Origin: Catajapyx aquilonaris
Taxonomy: Eukaryota
Direction: 5' to 3'
Assembly: GCA_000934665.2 (NCBI GenBank)
Contig: JYFJ02001638.1
Location: 1-64,000, forward strand
DNA length: 64,000 nucleotides
Within the stretch, counting starts at the first letter, position 1, and each line of letters opens with the position of its first letter. A model generated the notes under the pieces. It was given only the letters and a program-made list of their open reading frames with translations, was not told the origin of the DNA and ran no database searches. A program made the translations under genes and the position numbers. This document shows positions 759-57,355 of this stretch, piece after piece.

Positions 759-3700
759 ATGGAAAAATTAAATGTGAAGCGCACCGGGAAAAGGTACAGT
801 GGAAGATAGTAGTGAAACTGCGTCATTCCCTCGCAAGGGTGCACTTCAGCCCCGCAATATTATTGCAGGGCTCTATATTGCATTTCTCGCATCTACTAGA
901 AGACCAGCTGAGTCGAATGACACTATTCGTATAGGGTGGAGAAAAATGATAGAATATTGAAATAGCAAGTAATAAACAATCAGTAAATGAAAATGAACCG
1001 GTGTTCCTTTGTTGAAACGGCTTTACTTCGGTTGTTGCGTGATGGAATCGTCATGGTAATTTCAAAGGTAATTTGTAGATTATTGAGGACGTTCACCGGC
1101 TGCGGCAGCGAAACAAAAGAGTACAATAAAATAACAAGGTACTCTATGTGCGTCCCCAACATTGCCGTCTTGTGGCGCCGTAGATGTTGCGTGAAGCGGC
1201 TCTGAAAAGCCACAATAACGTTCGTTGCCCTGCGGCGCCACAAGCCAAACAGTTAATGTTTCGATTACACAACCCGCACAATAAGCGGCCTACTCACTAA
1301 CGCTGAATTGAACTAAAATCACCACGCAATTTTCATTTATTGATTGCCTGTTACTTGCAGCAATTTCAAAGTTTGATAACTTTTGAACGAATTGTTTCTC
1401 ATTATTCTCAACCCTACAAAGAGTGTCATTCGGCGCCTCAGCTGGTCGGGTAGATTCAGAAAATATACGGGGTGTATCACATTCACGGGTCAAGCGCGCG
1501 CGAGGGAGTGGGGAAAAATCGCAGGGGGCGACAACTCCGGTCGGTTTTTATAAAACAATATTAGACATAAGGCAGTACCGGTAATCAATTTATTTATTGC
1601 GGCGTGACGTCACATCCTTTCTGTATTCGAATTGACCGGCGCGGACTGGCAGATTCAGTGGGTTGAACTGGTTGAGCGGCTTTTTAGCCTTATTGCGGGT
1701 TGCACTGAAAAAGGCGCTCTCACCGGCAGGGTACTGTACAACGTAGTGTACTACCGCACAGGAGTGTGTTCAGTACCCTGCCGGTGTAGCATGAGAGCGC
1801 CTTTTTCAGTGCAACCCGCAAGGCCAAAAAGCTGTTCAAATCAGATTCATTCCATGCTGCATCTGCCAGTCCGCGCCACACAATTCGAACAGAAAGGATG
1901 TGACGTCACGCCGTGCGGCCGTAATAAATAAATTTCTAATCGTTTTCTCAAACCGACCGGGGTTGTCGCCACCTACGATTTTTCCCCACCCCCTCGCGCG
2001 CGCTTGACCCGTGACTCTGAAACACCCTGTATAGTGTAGAAACCTGCAATATGTTTGCGTGGCTCAAGCTTGGGACGCACACAGGGCCACCACATGGCTG
2101 TTTACATTTGTGAGGGTGGAATTCAGTGCTGCACTTGTTATTATTTAGGAGAATACAGTAAAACTTCCATAATAAGGCGAACTTCCCTAAGTCGAAGAAA
2201 ATTATGAGCTTGGTTGGTCACAATGTAAATAAATTAGGAAATAAACTTCCCTAACTCGAATTTCTACAACTCGAAGTTCTCCATAACTCGAAGTGCAGGC
2301 AGGGCTTTACCATGGGATATCAATGCATTTTCAGTCTCCCTAAGAAGTCCAAGTTCATGTTGGCGAGTACGGAACATTTTCTCATTTCCCAGCCGAAGGG
2401 TAGAGAGTAGGCCACATGTACAGAAAGGCTCAATTTCTTGATCTCCGTCTACCAGACGTACCGAAAGAAGTCTTTGACGCGATCGTTGTGACAATTGAAT
2501 CCTTGAATCTAAGAGTAGGCAAATGTCCGTATCCGAGTTTTTAAATACAACAAAACAACGAGGAACCTTGTAAGTGTGATAGTGACAGTTATATTTAAGT
2601 TGCGGACACCTTTCGTCGCCGGATATAAAGGTAGGCTTCCTATAGAGTTCTGTGCTTAAAAAATAAATTCCATTCTTCTCTAACTCGAATCTTCTATAAC
2701 TCAAGTTTTTTCCCCCAGTCCCATGGAGATTCGACTTACAGAAGTTTTACTGTATTTGGACCTTGGGTGTACTGGGTCAGCCCTGACCGAGCCCTTCATG
2801 CCATTTATCATTAATATTGTTGCTGATTAACAATCAAAGGTGCACACTGCACATATTATTGGATGCAACATTCCTGCATGCTTCTGGCTTTGATCTGGGC
2901 TCAAAATTGTTCTTGACAAGCTGCCACCACTATAGCACTCCTGTTCATTTACCTCCTCACTTGTTTGCATGATACAGTGACCTGTCCCAGGCCTTCTGGT
3001 CAGTGGCCCACAACCAGCGAGAAGAGGAAGACCATGTGCCAGACCCATGTGTTCCAGCTTGCATGTTCTGGACCAGAAGCAACGTTTCTCTGTGGCTCCG
3101 AACCATTGGATATCCTCAATATGTGGTGAGCTTGATGATGGTCATGATGATCATGATAACATGTTGGTTATTATGATAATGGTGATCTTTCTTCCCATCA
3201 GAGAACTTTCTCTGCAAACTTCATCGATGGTAGGAAGCTCATGTGGTTGGATGCATGCAAGCTTATCAAGATGGGGATTTGTGACTTTGATGATGTCAAG
3301 GTAAGCCATCTCATTGATTTCTTATTGGAGTGGTTGAAGGAAGGGTAAAAAGTCTGCATTGTTTTGAATGGCTTTCCTGCACACATGGCGCGCGTTCCTT
3401 TCCTAGAATCTGACTGCGGCCGTCCGGTTCTTGTCGAAGGAGTTTAATGACGACAGGGAACGCAGCATCGCCCTTCCGACCCTGACCCCACGGACCGCCT
3501 TCCTCCGCATCAGGAGCCGCATCCACAAGAAGCCAATGGTGTTCAAGTGCTTCCTCCGCAAGGAAGGCTACGATGGTGCCAGGGGTTGCTCCACAGAAGG
3601 CTGGTTGGCTCCTCCAACCAGGTGCTGCATATTTGCCCCGAAATTCATCCCAGAGCTATACATGTCTAAGTCGCCGGAGATACCTGACATCTCACCAGCC

Positions 3701-3985
3701 CTCATGCTTTGCCCTCGTTGCATCAGGGAACAAGCAAGAGGGAATAAAGACCTCTCAGTGTTCAGGTATCCCTGGCAGCAGCCACCCTGGCAGCATCCAG
3801 CACTCAGCGCACTGACACCTCCAAGCTGGTCACCACCAACCGTCTCATCTCGCAAGAGAGACACTTCCTGGAACAATAGGTCCACATTGCTATCCCACTT
3901 ATACCTGCTCAATCACCCGGACACACCTCTTTCCCAGTACGGACGGCTATGCCGGACTCGCAATGGAACCCTTCCAGAGTTGTGA
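759..3985 (+). CDS. SAM-domain protein (SAMD15-like), tandem copy 1; exons ~759-793 (uncertain), 2978-3125, 3202-3300, 3407-3985
   Basis: Spliced translation FWTRSNVSLWLRTIGYPQYV|RTFSANFIDGRKLMWLDACKLIKMGICDFDDVK|NLTAAVRFL...RSIALP is a SAM domain resembling the SAMD15 C-terminus; GT-AG phases are consistent. Exon 1 is inferred from similarity to copy 2 and needs a weak donor at 794. Confidence 0.7.
1468..2029. mobile_element. Foldback MITE, Tc1/mariner-like
   Basis: Termini C(G/A)GGGTGT.TCA.A.TCACGGGTCAAGCGCGCGCGAGGG; flanking TA at 1466-1467 and 2030-2031; inverted symmetry continues almost to the centre (~1745). Confidence 0.85.
2156..2752. mobile_element. pogo/Tc1-like MITE family A, copy 1
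   Basis: TIR CAGTAAAACTTC...GAAGTTTTACTG, TA on both sides; alignable along its length with 4812-5367. Confidence 0.85.
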
Positions 3986-6060: not shown

Positions 6061-7192
6061 ATGGAGAAATGTAAGGTGGTGCGCACCGGAAAAAGGTACA
6101 GTGGAAATGAAGCTGCGTAAGTGCTGGGTATATCCTTGCATGCCTCTGGCGAATTTGATGATAATTATTATGGCCTCACATATATTGCTCTTGACAAGTT
6201 TGCATCACTTGCTTACATGAAACAGAGACCTGTCCCAGGTCTTTTGGTCAGTGGCGCACAACCAGCGAGAAGACGAAGACCATGTGCCAGACCCATGTGT
6301 CCCACCTTGCATGTTCTGGGACCAAGACGAAGTTGCTTCCTGGCTCAAAGACGTCGGATATCCTCAATATGAGGTGCGCCTAATTAATTAATTAATTAAT
6401 TAATTAATAACAATAAAGTTTTTTTTCCATCAGGAAATTTTCAGTGCAAACATCATCGATGGTAGGAAGCTTATGTGGGTGGATGCAAGCAAGCTTATCA
6501 AGATGGGGATTAGTAACTTTGATCATGTGAGGGTAAGCTTTGACTTGGAGTGGTTGAAGGAAGAGCTAAAAGTTTTTGAATGGCTTTCCTCCTGCACATT
6601 CATTTCCCAGGATCTGAGTGCGGCCATTCGCTTCTTAATAAAGGACTTTAACGAAGAAAAGGAACGCAGCGTGGCCGTTCCACCGCTGCCCCCACGGACC
6701 GCCTTCCTCCGCATCAGGAGTCGCACCCACAAGAACCCCATGGTGTACAAGTGCTTCCTCCGCAAGGAAGGCTACGATGGTGTCAGGGGTTGCTCCATAC
6801 AAGAAAGCTTTCCTCTCCCCACCAGGTGCTGCATATTTGCCTCTAGATTCATCCCAGAGCAATACACGCCACCTACGCTGGATGAGACACCGCCTGCTGA
6901 CACGCCGCCATACGACCGGCGTTGCTCTCGTTGCATCAGGGAACAAGGAGACATTTCAGTAACCAGGGCCCGGTGGCAGCAGCCAGCAGCCAAGCCACTC
7001 GGCCGCTTGCCTCATCCACACTGGTCACCAGCAGCCTGCTCCTCTGTCACTGGAACAATAGGTCCAGATGGCTGTCCCAGTCAAGATATTCATCCCCAAG
7101 TTCATCCCCTGGGTATAACTCGTCTCCTCTCCAACCCCAGTACTGACAACATACTATGCCTGACTCCCAATGGAACCCTTCCAGAGAAGTGA
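6061..7192 (+). CDS. SAM-domain protein (SAMD15-like), tandem copy 2; exons 6061-6116, 6226-6373, 6434-6532, 6611-7192
   Basis: MEKCKVV...FWDQDEVASWLKDVGYPQYE|EIFSANIIDGRKLMWVDASKLIKMGISNFDHVR|DLSAAIRFL; canonical splice sites; internal exon sizes (148, 99 nt) identical to copy 1. Confidence 0.8.
6381..6408. repeat. (TAAT)n microsatellite in intron
   Basis: taattaattaattaattaattaattaat read directly. Confidence 0.9.
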
Positions 7193-25266: not shown

Positions 25267-26300
25267 GGCGCTGGCTGGGACTACTCCTCAGCTGCCGGTG
25301 GACATGCCACAGACAGGCTGCTGTAACTAGCAGTAATTAGTGCGGTTGATGCAACACGGTGGAGCGTACTCTTCAGCTCCTGTCGCCTGCTTGAAGAAGC
25401 GGCTGCCCAACAGACAGTCCTACTCTGAGCAGGTTCTTCTTCTTCTTCTTCTCTTACCACCACCTCTAAGGGCGATCCAGAATGATCCAGGATCTTCCTC
25501 CAGGACCACCTTCCAGCAAACCTCGTGCCCTTTCCCACTCTTCTTCAGCTGGACATAGCAACATCCATGCCCAGCTCCACGGGGACTTGTGCAGGTGGAA
25601 AAAAAGGGACGCCATCTTTGAGCAAGTCACTTCTGTTGCCACTTCTCCGATACGGTACTGTACATACATGCCAATTATTATTCGGCCGGATTTGCTATTC
25701 CGATATGGATTATCCCTGTTGGGATTCGAAGCATATTTTCCGGGAGGAAGGAAACAAAAGGAAAATGTAGGCTGACAACTGCTTCACATAAATGACACGG
25801 TAATACTACACGGTGTGACGACTTCCTCATTTCCAGCTGCTGCTGAAACAGGAACAAAATGCCACACAATTATTTGAATCCCGTTTTAATTACACAGCGT
25901 CATTGTGTTTGCTGCATGATGACATGGACTGGTGCGGGGCAGCTGGAAGAATGGATATATACATATGCTGCAATTATAGGCATGTCAACAGTGTGTAACT
26001 GAAGGCACCAATAATAAATCCCTTCCGTCGTCGTGTCCACGCAATTGAAATGGAGCTACATGCAGCAGGTGCAGCTCCTGTCTAATGAGACAACCGTGTA
26101 ATTTCAGGCAGGGGGCTCGTCGTGTTTATATGGGACCAGTTGGGTCCACCTGTGCTGCAGTATAGTCGCACACTCTTGTTGCATGTTATTGGGTTCAGAC
26201 CATCAGCACAGGACATATACATATAGTTGAAGGCCTCTGTGCATCAGGAGAGGTACCACATATGCTGGCCGTGTGAACCGGACTGTGTATATATACCGAC

Positions 26301-48046: not shown

Positions 48047-51000
48047 TTAAAAGTCCGAGTCGGAGCCTGACTCGTCGAAATTGTACTTGACTGGCTTCCT
48101 AGCCCTTCCGCCCCCTTCCCTCTCCCTGGCTGGGGACTCGAATCCTCCGGTACCAAACGCATCCTTCCGCAGGCTGTCCTCGTCACTGCTGCTGGAAGCC
48201 GCCTTCTTCTTCTTGCGCTGAACCTGCATAAACCAAGCCTATTTGTATGAAGCAATCCCCTTTCACTGCAAGGACTGGCTGCGTACCTTCTTCGCCTTGG
48301 GCGAGTCTGAATCGGAGGAATCACCAGCAGCCTTCTTCTTCGGGGCAGGCTTCTTGCGCTTAGGGGCCGCTGTAGTCTTAGGCTTTGGTCCACTAGGTGC
48401 TGCCTTCTTCTTCGGCTTGGGGGCGGCTGGAAAGAACATGTGCCGTCAGGATATGTCACCCATCAACAGCCATGGCGCAACTCACCCTTCTTCTCTGGCA
48501 TAAAGTCTGACCCCGAGTCGTCGTCATAAGCCATTGGGGCGGATGCGGCCTTGCTTGGCGCTGCAGCCGGCGAGGATGGCGGGGAAGAGTCTGAATCATC
48601 CAGCTTCCTGTTGTTTGCGGCGTTGGAGGCAGAGGACGATGCAGGTTGAGGTGCAAGTGCAGGGGGAGTGTCATTGTTGGAAGAGCTGCCTCCCATCAGC
48701 AGGGAGTCAAACAAAGCGTTGGAATCCTCTGAGGAAAGTGGCAAGAATTAAGTCCCAGTCGCATCAAGTCCAGTTTCAATCACTTACCCATTGGTTTTGC
48801 TGGCTGCTTCTTCTTCTTCTTAGGTCCGACATCGCTGTCGTCATCAGAGCTGCTTGCTTTCCTCCTGACAGGCGGGGCTGCTCGCTTAGTCGGAGCAGGG
48901 GTCTTCTTGGCCTCAAACTCGCTGTCGGTGTCACTTATGGCCACCACATCATGCCTGCAATAAACAAGCGTGTCAGACACCAGAGCCACCAACAAATTAG
49001 TCGCGCCAACTCACTCGTCAGAACTGCTGTTGTCCAGGTTGTAGTTGACGGCACCTGGAGGGACACGAGGATTGTAATGAGCACACTGTACGGCACAAGT
49101 CGGAGGGTTATATCTTGCCTGCTTTACCTGCGGCTTTCCTGGAGGTCTTCTCCCTTCTGACCACTGGTTGTTCGTTATCACTGGCAAACGGATCCTCCCC
49201 TTCGCTGTCACTCATGCCGCCCTTGGGCTTGAAGTTCAACTTCGTCTGCTTCATCCCATCTACCGTCACCAAAGTACATCATTAGCAACTTGAGGATGGC
49301 ACCAGGATATCCAGGTGACTCACCTGCCGCCTTCTTCCTGCCCCTGGCCTTCTTCTCAATCATCTCGGGGGAGTTTCCCAAACTTTCCCTCAAAGAACCC
49401 TTGGTGCCTTCCACCATCAGGTCAATCTCATCCTTCTCGTCCTCTGGCTCCTTCTTGCCCTGTTACGGAGAGTAGGAACAGTGACGTCCACCGTCCGTGC
49501 TACAAGTGAGCAATGACTTACCCTCTTCCCCTTGTTCTCCTTGGCGGCCGCAGCCTTCTCCACCTTCTTCTTGAGCTCAGGGTCGATCCTCGGCTCCACC
49601 CTCCTGGCCATTGGCGACGGCAGGGTCTCGTGGGCAGGCTTCTTCCCCCTGCCACCCAGCATGGCGCCCTTACCTTTCCCTTTGGGCTTAGGTATGTCCA
49701 TGTCATCTTCCAACTCCTTCTGCTCAACCACATCCAGCTGCAAAAGAGTGAACAGGTGAGAACAAGGTTACACTTAGGCGCCCCAGTCTCGCATGAATAT
49801 TCCCTAACCCACCTCCTTGATGAGGGCATCCAGATCGTCCTTCCAGAGCTGCGAAGGCGACTTTGCCTGAAGCTTCTTGAGCTCCTGCTGCTTCTCGTCC
49901 CTCTTTCGGAGCAGCTCGTCCTTCCTTTCCTTCGTGAGCGACCACATGGTCATCCCCAGGAGGTAGTCATAGTCCCGACCGCTGTCCAGGTCCTCCTCTT
50001 CCTCCTGAGAATCGGCGGCTGCGGCTGCGGCTGCATCCTCCTAACAAACCAAACACACAATCAGTCCCACCTTATACAGGCCCGAAAGGGCCATTCATTC
50101 ATCTCCCACCGTACCTGCCCATTCTCCTTTGCCAGAACAGACATACAAAGCGAGAGGAAAAAAGCCACTCGAAGCATCATTCTCACTCGCAAACACATTC
50201 CTGCCCAAAAGGCAACACTCACCATGACGGCGTCCCTATCCTGCTGGATCTTCCAGGCCTTGACCGGATCCGAGTCATACCCTTTCCGCACAAGCTCCTC
50301 TATCATGTCCTTCTTTTTCTTGTTCTCGATAGTCAGGATTCCATCGCACTTCTCTATGATGAACCTGGAATGACACATCCATTACAGAATGGGGACTAAT
50401 GCTACTCAATCCTGCAGCATACCTGGCCTGATTGGAGAGCTTCAGTGCTTCAGCCTTCAGCATCCCCTCCAGGTACGCCTTCCTCTTCACGTAGAAGCTG
50501 AGCCGCAGGTGGTAGAACTCCTTCAGGATGTCCTCGACCGTGTCAAAGCGCCTGAGACATCCGTTTGAGTCAAACAGGACCATGGAGGTTGTGCTGAAGG
50601 TGGTCTGCAGCTTGAACACCTTATGCAGGCCCTCATCTTCCGCCTTGATCATTTTGTCCTCTGGAAGGCTGACCACAAAGCGGACAGTCTTGTCTGTGTG
50701 GTACTCCTTGTAGTCGCTGATGACGGCCGCGGTTTTCTCCGTCCCATGCAGCATGGGCTCCAGGTGGTTCTCCTTGTAAACCTGTGTCCAAACGTGCACA
50801 GGCAGCTCCGTAATCTCGATCCGGTTGGCGGACAGGATCCCCACTTCCCCGTTCATTAACCACTTCTGGTGGCCCAGTGATTCAATCTCGCCTTTGAACC
50901 CTTTGTACCAAGGTTTCATTGGGCGCGGCTCTTCCCCATCAATCATCAGTCGGAGGTTCCGCACAATCTCCCGGGGACTGTGGTTGGGAATCTTGGTCAT

Positions 51001-54000
51001 CCAGCCTGTCCCAATGCCGTCCGCTCCGTTGACCAGCACCATGGGAATGACTGGCATGTACCACTCTGGCTCAATGCGCTGGTTGTCGTCATTCAGGTGC
51101 TTCAGGAGGGGCTCGTCATTCGGGTGGAATATGTGCTTGGCCAGGGTGCTCAGCATGGTGAAGATGTATCGAGGGCTGGCTGCGTCCTTCCCTCCCTGCA
51201 GCCTGGTGCCAAACTGACCAATGGGCTGGAGCACATTGATATTGTTGCTCCCGACGAAGTTCTGGGCCAGGTTGATGATGGTGGACATGAGGGAGGCCTC
51301 CCCGTGGTGGTAGGCCGAGTGCTCAGCCACGGACCCTGCCAGCTGGGCCACCTTGATCTCCCGCTTGTCATTACGCTTCAGGCAGGTGTACACGATCTTG
51401 CGCTGACCCGGCTTGAAGCCATCCACCAACGAAGGGATGGACCTCTCGTTGTCCATGTTGGAGAACAGAACCAACTCCTTGTTCACAAAGTCCGAGTAGT
51501 GCACCTGGGTCGTGTCCTTCTCGTACAGGTAGAGCTCAGGCAGCCCGAGCTCCCTCCTGCGCTTGCACTCGTCCATCCAGTTGGTCAGCCACTCCTTCCG
51601 CTGATCCACGCACTTCTTGCTGAACGCCATCATGATAGCGTGGTCGTCCTTGGGTCCCTGGTAGCGGAATGTGACTCGGTGACGCTGCATGTCGCTGAAA
51701 TACTCCTTGGCCTCCTTGGAGGTGGAGGTACCCAGACCCTTGTAGTACTTGATCTTGTATGTGTGCCAGTTGGTCTTGGCGCGCTTCCACTCCTCAAACT
51801 CGGGAAGGGAGAAGAAGGGATGCTCCTCCTTGGCCCCCTTGGTGGCCTTCACGATTGGAGTGATGAACTCCTCCAGGAAGGGAAGCTGCAGCAGACTGGG
51901 CCAGTTGTGGTGGATGAAGTTGATCAGCAGGCCCTTGATGTGAGACCCATCCTGATCCTGATCAGTCATGATCATCAGCTTCCCGTAGCGAAGAGTCTTC
52001 AGGTCATCCACAGACTCGTACTTCTTCTTGTACTGCAGGCCCACAATCTTGATGATGTTGTTGATCTCCGCGTTCTCCAGGATCTGCTTGTGAGTCGCCT
52101 CGCGCACATTCAGCATCTTTCCCCTCAAGGGAAACACTCCGTACTTGTCTCTCCCGACCACACCCAGTCCTGACACAGCCAGGGTCTTGGCTGAGTCTCC
52201 CTCCGTCAGAATGAGGGTGCAGTCGATGGAGTTCCGCGTCCCAGCATCGTTGGCATCTTCCAGCTTGGGGACACCCCGCAGCTTGTTCTGCTTCTTCGTG
52301 TTGCAGGCCTTGTTCAGCTGGGTCTGCGCCTTGAACTTGGCCCAGCTCAGGACAGCCTCGACAATCCCGCACTTCTGTACGCTGCCCACGAACTTGTCAG
52401 AGACAGTGACCTTGGATCCGAAATTCTTCATCTGCAGGGTCATGTTCTCTTTCGTCTGGGAGTCGAACGTGGGGTTCACAATCAGGCAGTTCACAAACAC
52501 CCACATGTGGTTGCGCACTTGGAAAGGCTTCACATCCACCCCTCCCTTGTTCTTCTTCTTCACGTTTTCTATGAGTTTCTTGATGATTACGTCGGCCACA
52601 TGGTCCACATGACGTCCTCCCTGCAAGTACAATCGCAATGAATATGCATTCCCCCCCAAGACACAATTACAGGGAGCTCACCTTCGTTGTAGCAATACTG
52701 TTAACGAATGAGATCTGCTGGAAGCCCTTGTCTGAAGGGCACACCGCAATGTCCCATCTCTCGCTCGGACTCTCGTACACCACCTTGATTGGATTGCCCA
52801 CGTCATCCGTCTTGCCTTTCACATACAACTCTACATACTCCTTGAAATTTTTCACCTGCAATCCGCAAGAGAAGCATGACACCCACTGTAACGCAGTTCA
52901 ATGGTCCAGCCAATACTCACAGGCAGCCTCTTCCCATTGAGGTAGACCTTGACGTCTCTGGTGGACGCCGCCATGTCGTACGCCCTGCGAGACATGAGGG
53001 CCACTATGTCATTGTCCAGTGTGGTCATGTTGAACTTGGTGAGGTCAGGCTGGAAGGTGATCTTGGTGTAATCCTCTCCGTGGAATTCCTTAATCTTGGG
53101 GTCTGACGCCTTGCCCATGTTGTTCACCCAAGACTGCAATGGAAATTGTTGTTAGCGCGCCACTGGCCAGGTGTAGCAAGCAGCAGAAATACCGGACCTG
53201 CTTGAAGCACTTCCTGTACTCCTTGCAGGCAGTCTCCACCACAAACTTGTTGCTGAAGATGTTGCAGAGCTTGGCGCCATACCCGTTGCGACCTCCCGTG
53301 ACCTTCTGCTCCTCGTCGTTGTAGTTGGACGAGGTCAGCAGGTGGCCGAAGATCATGGTGGGCACAAACATCTTCTCGTCCTTGTGCTCCACCACGGGGA
53401 TGCCCTTGCCGTTGTTCCATATCGCAATCTCGTTATTCTCCCTGTACAATCGGGGCAAAACATTAGAGTCACGTAAACGCTGCACCAAAGAGGCGCTACT
53501 GACGCGTCAATCTCGATGCGGATGCAGTTCATCTTCTTATCCCTCTGCTTGTTGTCAGCCGCATTGACCAGGATCTCATCGAATATCTTGTACAGGCCGG
53601 GCACGTAGGTGATCTCCCGCAGGACCATTCCCTTATCCTCCCCGTCAAACACCCACATCATCTCGGTATGCGGCTCGATTGAACCTGTAGGGGAGACGCA
53701 TCACGGGGCGTGTCATTTAATGCATTTTGAACAGGCTGCTTGGTGGTAGAACAAAAGGAGGGAGACTGACCGACATAGGTGTCTGGCCTGAGCAGGATGT
53801 GCTCCAGCTGCGTCTTCTTCTGGTAGACTCTCTCGACGCTGAGCTTCTTCTTAGGCGGCGGGGCTGCCACGCGTGGGGCGTCCCCTCCTCCGTCCATGGG
53901 GGCAGGGGCGCTGCCGTTCACCTTGGAATTCATCCTGTCGAATAGTTGCTGGGAAAGAGGGAGGAAATGGCCAGTTAGAACCCAAAATATCCCCCGGGCC

Positions 54001-54086
54001 ACGTGTATGAGCCCCCCATCACTAAACAAAGGTGGTTCAACCCAGTGTGGTAGTACCTTCAAGGGTCCTCCCTTGTCTCCGGACAT
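48047..54086 (-). CDS. TOP2: DNA topoisomerase II; many exons
   Basis: YQKKTQLEHILLRPDTY, EILVNAADN, GGRNGYGAKL, TEGDSAK, PLRGK, MTDQDQDGSH, catalytic ASPRY, charged C-terminal tail. Confidence 0.98.
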
Positions 54087-55275
54087 GTCGCACCGGACAC
54101 GGTGTACCCGAACCGCCGTACCAACCACGTAGTACCGCACGAAGAACAACGCGCGACCGTTTGTTCCAAACCGAAATTCCGAATTCCAAAAATGTTCGAT
54201 TTCCTCCGACACCTTCCCGGCATGCAATTGGGGGGAACCCATCCACCAATCCCGGAGCCCCTTTCTGGCGGGGTAGGCCTCCAAGTGGGGGAAGGAGGGG
54301 GAAGGAATTGGCGCCAAATCTGCCAGGACCAATCAGGAGCTTTGCCGCCTTCTCCCTCCCTCCCTCCCTCCCTCCACACAACGACTAATCATAATGTTCG
54401 AAAAAAAAACTGGTTCGAAAAAAAATTATGAAATTTCGGCGGCCATGTTGGAACACCCATTGACTACATGTTCATGATCAAGTTGAAATGGAAAAATTAC
54501 GATTAAAATAAAAAATGGCAATGTGCATGTGCTAACTTCTCAAGAATTATACCACTGTTTTTGACGTGGTTGTTTCTAATTATACTGCATGAAAATGTGA
54601 TAATTTTTTTTTTGACTAATTAGATGCCCAACTCAGGAACCTGGATTTGAAAATGCATTGTAACGTGGCAATTATTTTCCAAACGCGAATAAGCGCAGGT
54701 AGCATTAGGAGCCTTCAAGAATTGTTTCGCAATTTTTTAAACGGCAGTGTTTGAAATTGCCTCATTTCTGTTCACAACGAGCAGTGCAGTTGGCCCGGCA
54801 CTTGCGGATTCGACCAACTGCAGATAAAATAATGTTCGGGGTGGGGAGAAAAAACCTACAACTATTAAAAAGAAAGCTCCCAAAAGCAATGTGGCAAGCA
54901 TTACACAGCATTTACAATGTATCGGGTATTTTAAGCAAGTGATTTTTGGGCATAGTTTATATGCAAATACATTCTCAGAGACTTTGAACATCCTGGAATC
55001 AATTCCTGCCAATACAAAAGGGCCCTTTAAAATGGACAATGCAATGGAAAATCACTGATTCACAGAGTGAGCATTAAAATCAATTTCATAAACACTAAGC
55101 AACTCTTAATCATGTTTGAACAATGGGTGAAAAATTAGACAAACATTCTCCAATGCCCCTAATTATTTATGGGTCCGCTTTCAGCAGGGAAGGAAATGCA
55201 GTGTTGTGATTTTCAAATCCAGATGACTGGAGATCGAATTAGACCAAACCTGAGTGTCACTTTTGTCTCGTAATG

Positions 55276-55437
55276 CAGTTGAATCAGGATACAACAGCCT
55301 CGGCTATACCAGACTTTCGGTTATAACAGACTCGAAAGGCCTGGTCCCGGAAAACTTCCATATGTGGCCTGTGTATTCGGCTATAGCCAGACTGACTTCT
55401 GAGGTCACCTTAAGTCTGTTATATCCGGATTCAACTG
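55276..55437. mobile_element. Small pogo/Tc1-like MITE
   Basis: TIR CAGTTGAATC(A/C)GGATA(C/T)AACAG; TA on the right, TG on the left. Confidence 0.75.
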
Positions 55438-55736
55438 TATTAGGAACAACCTCACTAAAAACCACCATGACCCATGTTGGCACCAATCTCAAAAAGAAGA
55501 AAAAAACCTGTTGTGGTTTCATAAATCTGGTATTTTAGTCACATATCACGTGTGGCCAAGCTGCGCAGATTTCACTTCATACCTTTTGGTGTGGCTCAAG
55601 TGCACTGAAACCTTTTGATTAAAGTGGACATGCATGAGGCATGTTGGGTGCAGATCCAGTGAAGGGGAAAACGATGCATGGCGACATCCACTCCCACACC
55701 AAGCAGTATGACGGCTACAAGATTGCCACACGTTAC

Positions 55737-56170
55737 GCAATTACAAAACAGGCCCCGGGCAGCATGGTAATGCCTAACACATAAGAGCAACCTGTCCGTA
55801 CAGCGCGGCTAGGTTCATGTCGTTCCATGATTGTGGGCATGGTGTTTCCATGTGTGGTAAGCCACTCACCCGTTAGCTGTCGACTGGGGATAAGCTGCTG
55901 CCGTGGTAAGGAGGCGGCTGTGCGTGAAGAGCGACCACCGCTTGAGCCAGGAAAGAACGCGCCAACGGACTCGCACACTGCGGGGGTGGGCAGGGTCCGT
56001 CCGGGGCGCAGGAAGGAGGCGAGTGCAGATAGGGCTGGGAGGCGAGGCACCTGCCTGTCTCACTGCTGGGCCCCTGGAGCGGCCATCACTCCAACGGGCA
56101 GGGGAATGAAGCGAGAAGAAGAGGGAGACCGTCGTCGGCCGGCGGACGCCATCTTGGAATCGGCCGCCAT
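55737..56170 (-). CDS. TOP2: Candidate alternative 5' exons of TOP2 encoding a mitochondrial-presequence-like peptide (56170/56086-56064, 55977-55870, 55791 or 55773-55737)
   Basis: GT-AG junctions in phases 2, 2 and 0 yield MAAPGAQHVRVRWRVLSWLKRWSLFTHSRLLTTAAAYPQSTANG(LLLCVR)HYHAARGLFCNC, in frame with TOP2 exon 2 at 53948. Confidence 0.5.
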
Positions 56171-56340
56171 TTTCCCGGGTGGGGGAAGGAGGGGGGAGGG
56201 CAGTGTGAGGGAGGAGGGAGCGGGGAGGACTTTCCTTTCTTCTCTTGGTTCCGCCAACGCCCGCCAGGTGGCATCTGGCTGTTTACACCCGACGGACAAC
56301 CAATCACGTCGCTCGAAATAGTGCGTGCAGCCAATCAGCG
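56145..56340 (-). promoter_or_regulatory. Orphan promoter upstream of TOP2
   Basis: GC-rich; two CCAAT boxes (~56300, ~56331); two AA(A/G)ATGGCG YY1-type motifs on the minus strand; lies downstream of the UTP23 poly(A) signal at ~56507. Confidence 0.6.
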
Positions 56341-56524
56341 CGATTCATCCAGATGGACAGTAGGTGGTGTAAACACGGCTGGGGAAGACGGTATGCGCAT
56401 GCGTCACTGCCCTGGAATCGAACACCCAACCGTATTTCGTGTCGATACGGTATCGATTTCATTAACATGACAAAAGCCAACCACTTTTGAGTGTGCAGCA
56501 AGCACCTTTATTTCCCAACATTCC

Positions 56525-57355
56525 CTAATTCTTCTTCTTGGAGGTCCTGTTCTGCTTCCACCGCCACTTCTCCTGCCGCCTCCGCTTGCTCTTGGGCATC
56601 CTCTTGCTCCCTTCCCCTTCCTCCTCACCCAGCATCTTCCTCTTCAGGCTTCCAAGCACCCTCTGGTCACGCTCGGACACACGCAGCCTGCAACACGTAC
56701 CACGGTTACAGTCTTATCAACCCGCCTTCTCCTGGCATGTATACATACTTGTCCTTCTCCCTCTGCGCCACCAGCTTCTGGCTGGTCTCCGACGGTCCTT
56801 CCAGGCATGGAGCCTTGTCGAATAGGAAGAGGATTGGGGTGCCCGCAACCATGCGGGCTTGGTGCCGCAGCTCCTTGTCCTGCGTCGCCACTATGTACCT
56901 GAAACAAGGCGTGTTAGGGATTGCGACCGGTGGCAACTGGGATCCGTACCTTCCGGCATTCTCCTCTCCAAGCATGGACAGGATGCACTGTGACGCGGGC
57001 AGTGGCTCACGAGTGTGCCCGCACCTGTGGATCCCAAACTGCTTGACAACGGCCGTGGCACCGGACAGCAGCCGACCAAACTTCTCAGCCTCAATGATGA
57101 CGCACGCGGTCGTCAGCAGCTTCAGCTCGCAATCAAAGTACATGGGCAGGTTGTCCCTAATGTTCACCTTGTTCTGAAATCCAAATCATTGATGAAGTAC
57201 GGCGCTCACAATGTGGCTAGTAACCTAAACCCAACCTGGAGGGCAGCCTGACAAAAAGTGGCGTCCAGCAGGACCTGGAAGGGCTTGTGGAAGCCGAAAT
57301 GCCTGCAGAAGAAGGCCAGACGCCTGTTCACCCTCTTCAACCGGCTGATCTTCAT
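56525..57355 (-). CDS. UTP23: rRNA-processing protein UTP23; 3 exons
   Basis: MKISRLKR...FGFHKPFQVLLDATFCQAAL, TTACVIIEAE, HRCGH, YIVATQD; basic tail. Confidence 0.93.

Follow-up and report, generated by a model that had tools for sequence, protein, structure and literature searches.

A Candidate Distal Promoter and a Possible Mitochondrial Presequence Isoform of TOP2 in Catajapyx aquilonaris

The gene for the type II DNA topoisomerase TOP2 in Catajapyx aquilonaris lies on the minus strand of contig JYFJ02001638.1 (assembly GCA_000934665.2), within the 64,000 nucleotides (positions 1 to 64,000) that make up the window analyzed here. Some 2 kb upstream of its ordinary first exon is a second promoter-like island with no other gene to serve. 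An earlier note on this DNA proposed that the island and three cryptic exons would give TOP2 a mitochondrial targeting presequence, so that a choice of promoter would separate nuclear from mitochondrial isoforms. Both the second promoter and one of the upstream exons appear genuine. A targeting function for the extension is plausible, and a presequence isoform of TOP2 at this locus is put forward tentatively, at somewhat less than even chances.

The TOP2 Gene and the Region Upstream

The TOP2 gene is intact. A type IIA TOP2 was defined as a single intact frame with GHKL ATPase, gyrase-B transducer, Toprim, TOPRIM_C, and topoisomerase IV-A domains; the predicted protein has four Pfam domains above the cut-off and, on a single exon, a partial HATPase_c match below it. 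Its best relatives are arthropod TOP2 proteins at 77% identity. A quick tree, built from 40 of 51 sequences after the trimming pattern removed 11, places it within Pancrustacea with support of 99 and, weakly, beside the barnacle with support of 88. The genome is compact, with a median intron of 62 nt among 61 chosen introns of the window. The features that matter for the argument are as follows.

54086-48047, minus strand: TOP2 gene, intact type IIA topoisomerase, 1612 amino acids, 16 introns
54057-54086, minus strand: nuclear first coding exon of the MSGDKGGPLK type, 10 codons ending GPLK, phase 0; the type is conserved across Bilateria
53771-53948, minus strand: TOP2 exon 2, main acceptor 53948 (phase 0, 7.4 bits), conserved Met at 53933
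53934 and 53910, minus strand: alternative phase-2 acceptors of exon 2 (3.7 bits, directly before Met 53933, and 4.9 bits)
48047-53684, minus strand: the rest of TOP2 after exon 2, a stop-free spliced frame
54245-54449, minus strand: proximal promoter with a YY1-like motif, two inverted CCAAT boxes, and a pyrimidine tract
55737-55791, minus strand: third exon of the earlier note, probably not an exon as drawn
55870-55977, minus strand: distal exon B, modest acceptor and strong phase-2 donor
56064-56086, minus strand: coding part of distal exon A, from ATG 56086 to a weak phase-2 donor at 56064
56104-56109, minus strand: initiator-like TCATTC, 18 nt upstream of ATG 56086
56145-56173, minus strand: two YY1-type motifs holding ATGs 56170 and 56152, in frame with ATG 56086
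56298-56337, minus strand: two inverted CCAAT boxes of the distal promoter, 31 nt apart
56507-56530, minus strand: 3' end of the upstream Fcf1/UTP23-type gene, AATAAA at 56512

A Second Promoter Upstream of TOP2

Several features make it very likely that the distal island is a promoter. The YY1-type pattern AARATGGCGKC occurs 8 times in the window where 0.15 would be expected, and two of these copies fall at 56145-56173. The tandem CCAATCA pair at 56300-56337 is the only one in the window, and 5 of 100 shuffles yield one; taken singly, CCAAT boxes show no enrichment (7 against 4.95 expected). CpG is raised. The TCATTC at 56104-56109, judged by the initiator consensus, is a weak hint of a start site of a kind that commonly occurs by chance. 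The distal island and the proximal TOP2 promoter both carry inverted CCAAT boxes and a pyrimidine tract, and the 21-nt proximal tract is 95% like one in the distal promoter. By their motifs, then, two promoters lie upstream of a shared exon. The claim that the island is promoter-like and without another gene to serve stands. On the sense strand, neither AATAAA nor ATTAAA occurs between 56512 and 54000, no Pfam family was found in the four distal and upstream frames searched, and all 12 Rfam matches in the region are far below the gathering score.

Elsewhere in the window, the YY1-type motif marks the 5' ends of genes at 25608, 35845, 37780, 44232, 57655, and 63388. In some of these genes it supplies what appears to be the start codon, and in others the apparent start is about 90-260 nt farther downstream.

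Splice Sites Between the Distal Promoter and TOP2

Splice sites were scored with position weights from 61 introns of the window, 16 from TOP2 and 45 hand-picked from the output of an ab initio gene finder. Eight of the 61 were confirmed by joints in RNA contigs and the rest are predicted, so the low tail of the reference set is probably lenient. Because the gene finder merged genes and gave antisense shadows, its role was limited to nominating introns; the distal exons are not among its predictions.

The strongest evidence for an upstream exon is the donor at 55870. At 9.1 bits it stands at the 85th percentile of the 61 reference donors and is the sole site of at least 9 bits among 132 GT dinucleotides in 54100-56340; no 9-bit donor occurs in 25,272 non-coding strand-bases. 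Because the site is this strong, alone locally, and of a strength absent from non-coding DNA, an exon almost surely ends at 55870. The acceptor that would open exon B, 55977, scores 3.6 bits (9 of the 61 are as low). The donor of exon A, 56064, scores 2.9 bits (3 of the 61 are as low), and 13 nt away a rival donor at 56051 scores 6.1 bits and would leave an upstream open reading frame (ORF) of 8 codons. At ATGs 56170 and 56152, position -3 is A and position +4 is G; the codon score from ATG 56170 is +0.12. More speculatively, a GTG with A at -3, the first full codon of the exon B frame, could serve as a non-AUG start with either donor.

The coordinates, the GT and AG dinucleotides, the phases of 2, 2, and 0, and the translation of the three-exon chain are all as the earlier note gave them; the chain is open into exon 2, and ATGs 56170, 56152, and 56086 share one frame. 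Its third exon, however, is probably wrong as drawn. The two acceptors offered for it score 1.1 bits (55791) and 0.2 bits (55773), where only 2 of the 61 are as low, and the donor at 55737, at -0.8 bits, falls under all 61 reference donors and would open an intron of 1788 nt. The codon score of -0.44 is non-coding-like, and among 161 in-frame options for a third exon leading to 53948, the two versions rank 70th and 71st. What favors the chain is its open frames, the lengths of its first two introns (86 nt, then 78 or 96 nt, against the window median of 62), and its arrival in phase 0 at a conserved junction. The agreement of phase is of little weight because 9691 ATG-led chains starting in 56260-55500 reach TOP2 in frame at lenient thresholds. 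The exact three-exon chain is an unlikely special case of the presequence isoform.

A third exon is also unnecessary. The phase-2 acceptors at 53934 and 53910 join donor 55870 to TOP2 in frame, through sites of 2.9, 3.6, 9.1, and 3.7 or 4.9 bits, so that the weakest site is better than that of the three-exon chain. The strong join from 55870 to 53948 is out of frame, with a stop just upstream in the TOP2 frame, and TOP2 would then start at Met 53933. The proposal of an alternative upstream TOP2 exon therefore survives for the exon ending at 55870 and not for the chain as a whole.

The RNA evidence consists of one run (X1), in which the contigs are spliced (8 of 9 joints have minus-strand GT-AG ends). 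They extend over the upstream gene and over the part of TOP2 that lies downstream of about 53890.

Other observations concern the same interval. A missing G in the run at 55870, which would turn the donor to phase 0, was considered and judged unlikely, as neighboring genes are without frameshifts. Upstream of the nuclear ATG, its frame stays open for 82 codons (54332-54086, minus strand); this stretch includes a Met near 54242 and, immediately before the nuclear ATG, a run of residues that is rich in Arg and free of acids. A phase-2 acceptor at 54264 could also connect donor 55870 to this open frame.

Character of the Predicted Peptide

The evidence that the encoded peptide is special is moderate and mixed. 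The 62-residue extension of the three-exon chain has 8 Arg or Lys and no Asp or Glu, the positive charge and scarcity of acids expected of a presequence. The exon B frame alone gives 35 presequence-like residues with 6 Arg or Lys, no Asp or Glu, and a single Pro or Gly, and the product from ATG 56152 is likewise acid-free. Exon B is unusually hydrophobic and poor in Pro and Gly for DNA of 62% GC, and it ends exactly at the strong donor. Its codon score of -0.02 is better than that of its two other frames.

Shuffles of 56200-55870 with the real donor held fixed show how much of this is chance. An ATG-led, acid-poor, basic peptide appears in 537 of 3000 shuffles (18%), so the charge criterion discriminates weakly; the acid-free, Arg-rich extension noticed earlier is present but is not distinctive in GC-rich DNA. 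When the peptide must also be hydrophobic and Pro/Gly-poor, at thresholds that the N terminus of NDUFA10 passes, 80 of 3000 shuffles remain (2.7%). Thresholds fitted to exon B itself are reached by none of 3000, an after-the-fact test that NDUFA10 itself fails, and 3 of 2045 open GC-matched non-coding windows pass it. The N terminus of a second control, MPV17L2, fails at all three threshold levels. The R-H-Y-H-A cleavage-like motif seen earlier falls inside the poorly supported third exon, on which it depends, and is left without support.

HMMER and Atlas searches with the exon B peptide returned no convincing relative. One HMMER match, to a seven-fold repeat protein at 41% identity, was rejected as a sum of chance matches.

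TOP2 N Termini in Relatives

A short first exon ending PL[K/R] before an LFD-type junction is found in the barnacle, Daphnia, mantis shrimp, locust, a hemichordate, echinoderms, and amphioxus. A second first exon at the same junction is annotated in malacostracans, locust, and amphioxus. For Daphnia (X2), locusts (X2/X3), and barnacle (X2), the annotation includes isoforms whose start lies within exon 2. In the locust Schistocerca, isoform X1 has a basic extension joined at the same exon junction.

How often TOP2 carries residues upstream of its usual start was surveyed in 321 proteins, mostly arthropod and with a fungal top match excluded, of which 271 have the anchor motif. Extensions of at least 17 residues occur in 27 of the 271. 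They are basic and acid-poor in 7 of 10 taxon groups, where random frames would give 0.25-0.34 by chance; the probability is about 0.01 (0.025 if ants and bees are counted as one group) for a criterion set after viewing the data and without a control gene. The locust misses the criterion narrowly, and Daphnia and Hylaeus also miss it; the groups that pass are termites, ants, Apis/Anthophora bees, phylloxera, prawn, crayfish, and a tick whose start is incomplete. For proteins without a species name, the labels termite, prawn, crayfish, and tick were assigned from other members of the cluster, from likeness of the N termini, and from the tree. Genomic-contig proteins that look like intron read-through (e.g., P0252, P0259, and P0337) and copepod-like extensions from ENA (P0268, P0325, and P0347) were left out of the count. 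The extensions of ants and bees resemble one another (2-7 of 500 shuffles do as well), as do those within bees (0 of 500), which suggests constraint on the predicted peptides.

The annotated extended proteins are Apis dorsata X1, Cataglyphis X1, Anoplolepis X1/X2, Daktulosphaira X1, and Schistocerca X1. Like the form proposed here, they have basic, acid-poor residues before the usual start. Unlike it, most of their extensions are 19-41 residues long and lie in frame directly before the short start, and they show no similarity to the peptide of the window.

Recurrence of presequence-like extensions of TOP2 among relatives is probable, and it is better supported than the route proposed at this locus. 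Together with the two annotated first exons at the same junction in relatives, these extensions raise the prior for a presequence form here.

Searches for nearer counterparts turned up no close relative. With exon 2 as query, identity over most of its length did not exceed 60%, a search with the barnacle N terminus returned the barnacle cluster alone, and 74 metagenome loci came from distant eukaryotes with no recognizable counterpart of the distal exons.

Several further observations were made on TOP2 N termini. In-frame extensions that look like presequences were noted in P0002, P0003, P0088, P0109, P0120, P0143, P0182, P0240, P0245, and P0375, which belong to the termite, prawn, crayfish, ant, bee, phylloxera, and tick groups. 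P0192 and P0196, of the termite cluster, begin with Val rather than Met. Copepod-like fragments from ENA (P0268, P0347, P0325, P0348, and P0358) have basic, Ser/Thr-rich extensions of 43-55 residues before the usual start. Amphioxus TOP2 (P0291 and P0289) has two annotated first exons, one ending PLR, which resembles chicken TOP2A and the GPLK exon of the window, and the other ending WV, which resembles fish TOP2B (P0299, P0334, P0311, and P0262 were compared). Each vertebrate TOP2 paralogue may thus have retained one first exon of the ancestor.

A Proposed Route to a Mitochondrial Isoform and Its Rivals

In the reading that we tentatively prefer, the proximal promoter would yield the usual nuclear form, which begins with the conserved GPLK exon, and the distal promoter would give a transcript spliced from the strong donor at 55870 into exon 2. 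The in-frame form would use the donor of exon A at 56064 and a phase-2 join, at 53934, at 53910, or through an unrecognized small exon. Translation from ATG 56086 would add about 44 basic, acid-free, hydrophobic residues and direct the enzyme to the mitochondrial matrix. With the join to 53948, the same exons would be a non-coding leader, and a nuclear form would start at Met 53933. Both joins may occur, and a choice between acceptors 14 nt apart could then toggle the location of TOP2. Any role on mitochondrial DNA, like the transcription, junctions, start codon, and import on which it would depend, is proposed from sequence features.

Several observations weigh against this presequence form. 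Each in-frame route uses a weak site; donor 56064 is rivaled by the stronger 56051, and acceptors 53934 and 53910 lie downstream of the stronger 53948. The hydrophobic moment of the peptide, a gauge of an amphipathic helix, is 0.63, close to that of the NDUFA10 N terminus (0.65) and is matched by 2319 of 9925 open shuffles. The codon score of exon B is low among true coding windows, whose 5th percentile is -0.08 and 25th is 0.18, and well under those of the NDUFA10 (0.32) and MPV17L2 (0.44) N termini. Among relatives, 244 of the 271 anchored proteins have no extension, the barnacle, the nearest neighbor in the tree, has none in 8 cluster members, and no extension is convincingly similar to the peptide of the window (best 5 of 500 shuffles in 13 comparisons). 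The RNA run, which is shallow, has no depth at 53893-55131 or 55486-56370, where the ordinary first exon is included, so that no proposed junction is covered and the run is uninformative either way. TOP2A and TOP2B were not found in human mitochondria (PMC9638942). The single invertebrate Top1 is believed to serve both compartments (PMC2770673), which weakens the need for a mitochondrial TOP2.

About as likely is a distal promoter that gives TOP2 a non-coding 5' leader, with the join from 55870 to 53948 and a nuclear isoform that is 15 residues shorter and starts at Met 53933; the presequence-like frame would then be a by-product of GC-rich DNA. The earlier note itself named this join as a case that would refute its proposal. 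The sites that it pairs, at 9.1 and 7.4 bits, outscore the rest, and if exon A is unspliced or uses donor 56051, all that lies ahead of Met 53933 is short upstream ORFs (8-36 codons). The annotated starts within exon 2 in Daphnia, locusts, and barnacle support it, the codon use of exon B is within the non-coding range, and, as their sequence reads, other genes of the window appear to combine non-coding leader exons with YY1-type ATGs that lie far ahead of the true start. A mere leader, however, leaves unexplained a hydrophobic, Pro/Gly-poor exon that ends at a strong donor, a combination seen in few shuffles, and the recurrence of presequence-like TOP2 extensions in other pancrustaceans, and the ATGs in good context would hinder initiation at Met 53933. 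The idea of promoter-switched isoforms keeps its two promoters, by their motifs, and its donor at 55870, and it loses the force of its phase matching, which is cheap.

Two further readings are improbable. Translation could begin at ATG 56170 or 56152 and give a long N terminus that is not imported, the signal being displaced from the end, or exon A could join exon 2 directly. Both ATGs have good context and share a frame, the codon score from 56170 is positive, and the same motif seems to supply the start codon of eIF3H and CASD1; masking of targeting signals by N-terminal residues is described in PMC12718117. Against this, the motif lies some 90-260 nt upstream of the apparent start in three other genes of the window, and the product from 56152 would still be acid-free. 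It is similarly doubtful that the distal island does not feed TOP2 at all and gives short or antisense transcripts behind the UTP23-type gene, or is silent. Such a view fits the lack of RNA at the island in the one shallow run, a negative that carries no information, and it sits poorly with a strong donor and YY1-type motifs in the sense orientation, the missing polyadenylation hexamer, and frames that match no Pfam or Rfam family.

Other Features of the Window

One further element lies in the long upstream intron, outside the exons.

55268-55445, no strand assigned: MITE-like repeat with 33-nt imperfect inverted arms

The element is repeated in the genome, as shown by the many RNA contigs that match it and have loose ends. 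On the plus strand, 3407-3985 and 6404-7192 hold a pair of similar ORFs, which resemble diverged tandem duplicates of a single unidentified gene. Among the other genes of the window, eIF3H and NDUFA10 are named from Pfam matches, and COG4, CASD1, MPV17L2, and CIAPIN1 from likeness.

Relation to Known Dual-Targeted Enzymes

Some DNA-metabolism enzymes are sent to nucleus and mitochondria with different N termini, as with UNG1 and UNG2, and the isoforms of DUT and UNG arise from alternative first exons. A nematode TOP2 paralogue is labeled mitochondrial in UniProt. Human DUT has nuclear and mitochondrial isoforms (PMC10181998). DUT and UNG are other enzymes whose isoforms were shown experimentally, whereas the TOP2 isoform is proposed here from sequence. 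TOP3A is a closer parallel, as one gene (in human, and Top3alpha in Drosophila) gives a longer N terminus with a presequence and a shorter nuclear form (PMC6514783 and PMC9638942). It differs in being a type IA enzyme that uses alternative start codons on one transcript, whereas a switch of promoter and splicing is proposed for the type IIA TOP2. Trypanosomatid mitochondrial type II topoisomerases are type IIA, like TOP2 here, but are encoded by separate paralogous genes (PMC6514783).

A type IIA enzyme has likewise been proposed to act on animal mitochondrial DNA in vertebrates, where the presence of TOP2A and TOP2B in mitochondria is disputed (for, PMC6182158; against, PMC9638942). According to a 2019 review, vertebrate Top2 has no known targeting sequence, and Drosophila mitochondria have been found to contain only Top3alpha (PMC6514783); the window, by comparison, has a gene-encoded candidate signal. 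Invertebrates are without a separate TOP1MT (PMC2770673), and TOP3A removes only negative supercoils, not positive ones (PMC9638942). The two facts are a rationale for a mitochondrial TOP2, not evidence of one.

The literature search, which covered few subscription papers, found no report of an arthropod TOP2 presequence and no paper testing the location of the annotated extended arthropod isoforms; fly mitochondrial proteome tables may bear on this. Passages from PMC12718117, PMC6163646, PMC12151872, and PMC12102361 hold nothing on arthropod TOP2 targeting.

Significance

The principle of dual targeting is known, and its application to animal TOP2 would be new. Whether a type II topoisomerase is present in animal mitochondria is disputed, and which enzyme relaxes positive supercoils on invertebrate mitochondrial DNA is open. 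It is possible, though short of an even bet, that pancrustaceans encode a mitochondrial TOP2 by placing an N-terminal presequence on the nuclear gene, here through a separate promoter and a choice of 3' splice site. If true, a defined TOP2 presequence, in Catajapyx or in the bees, ants, and termites with an annotated upstream start, would make the mitochondrial question experimentally tractable.

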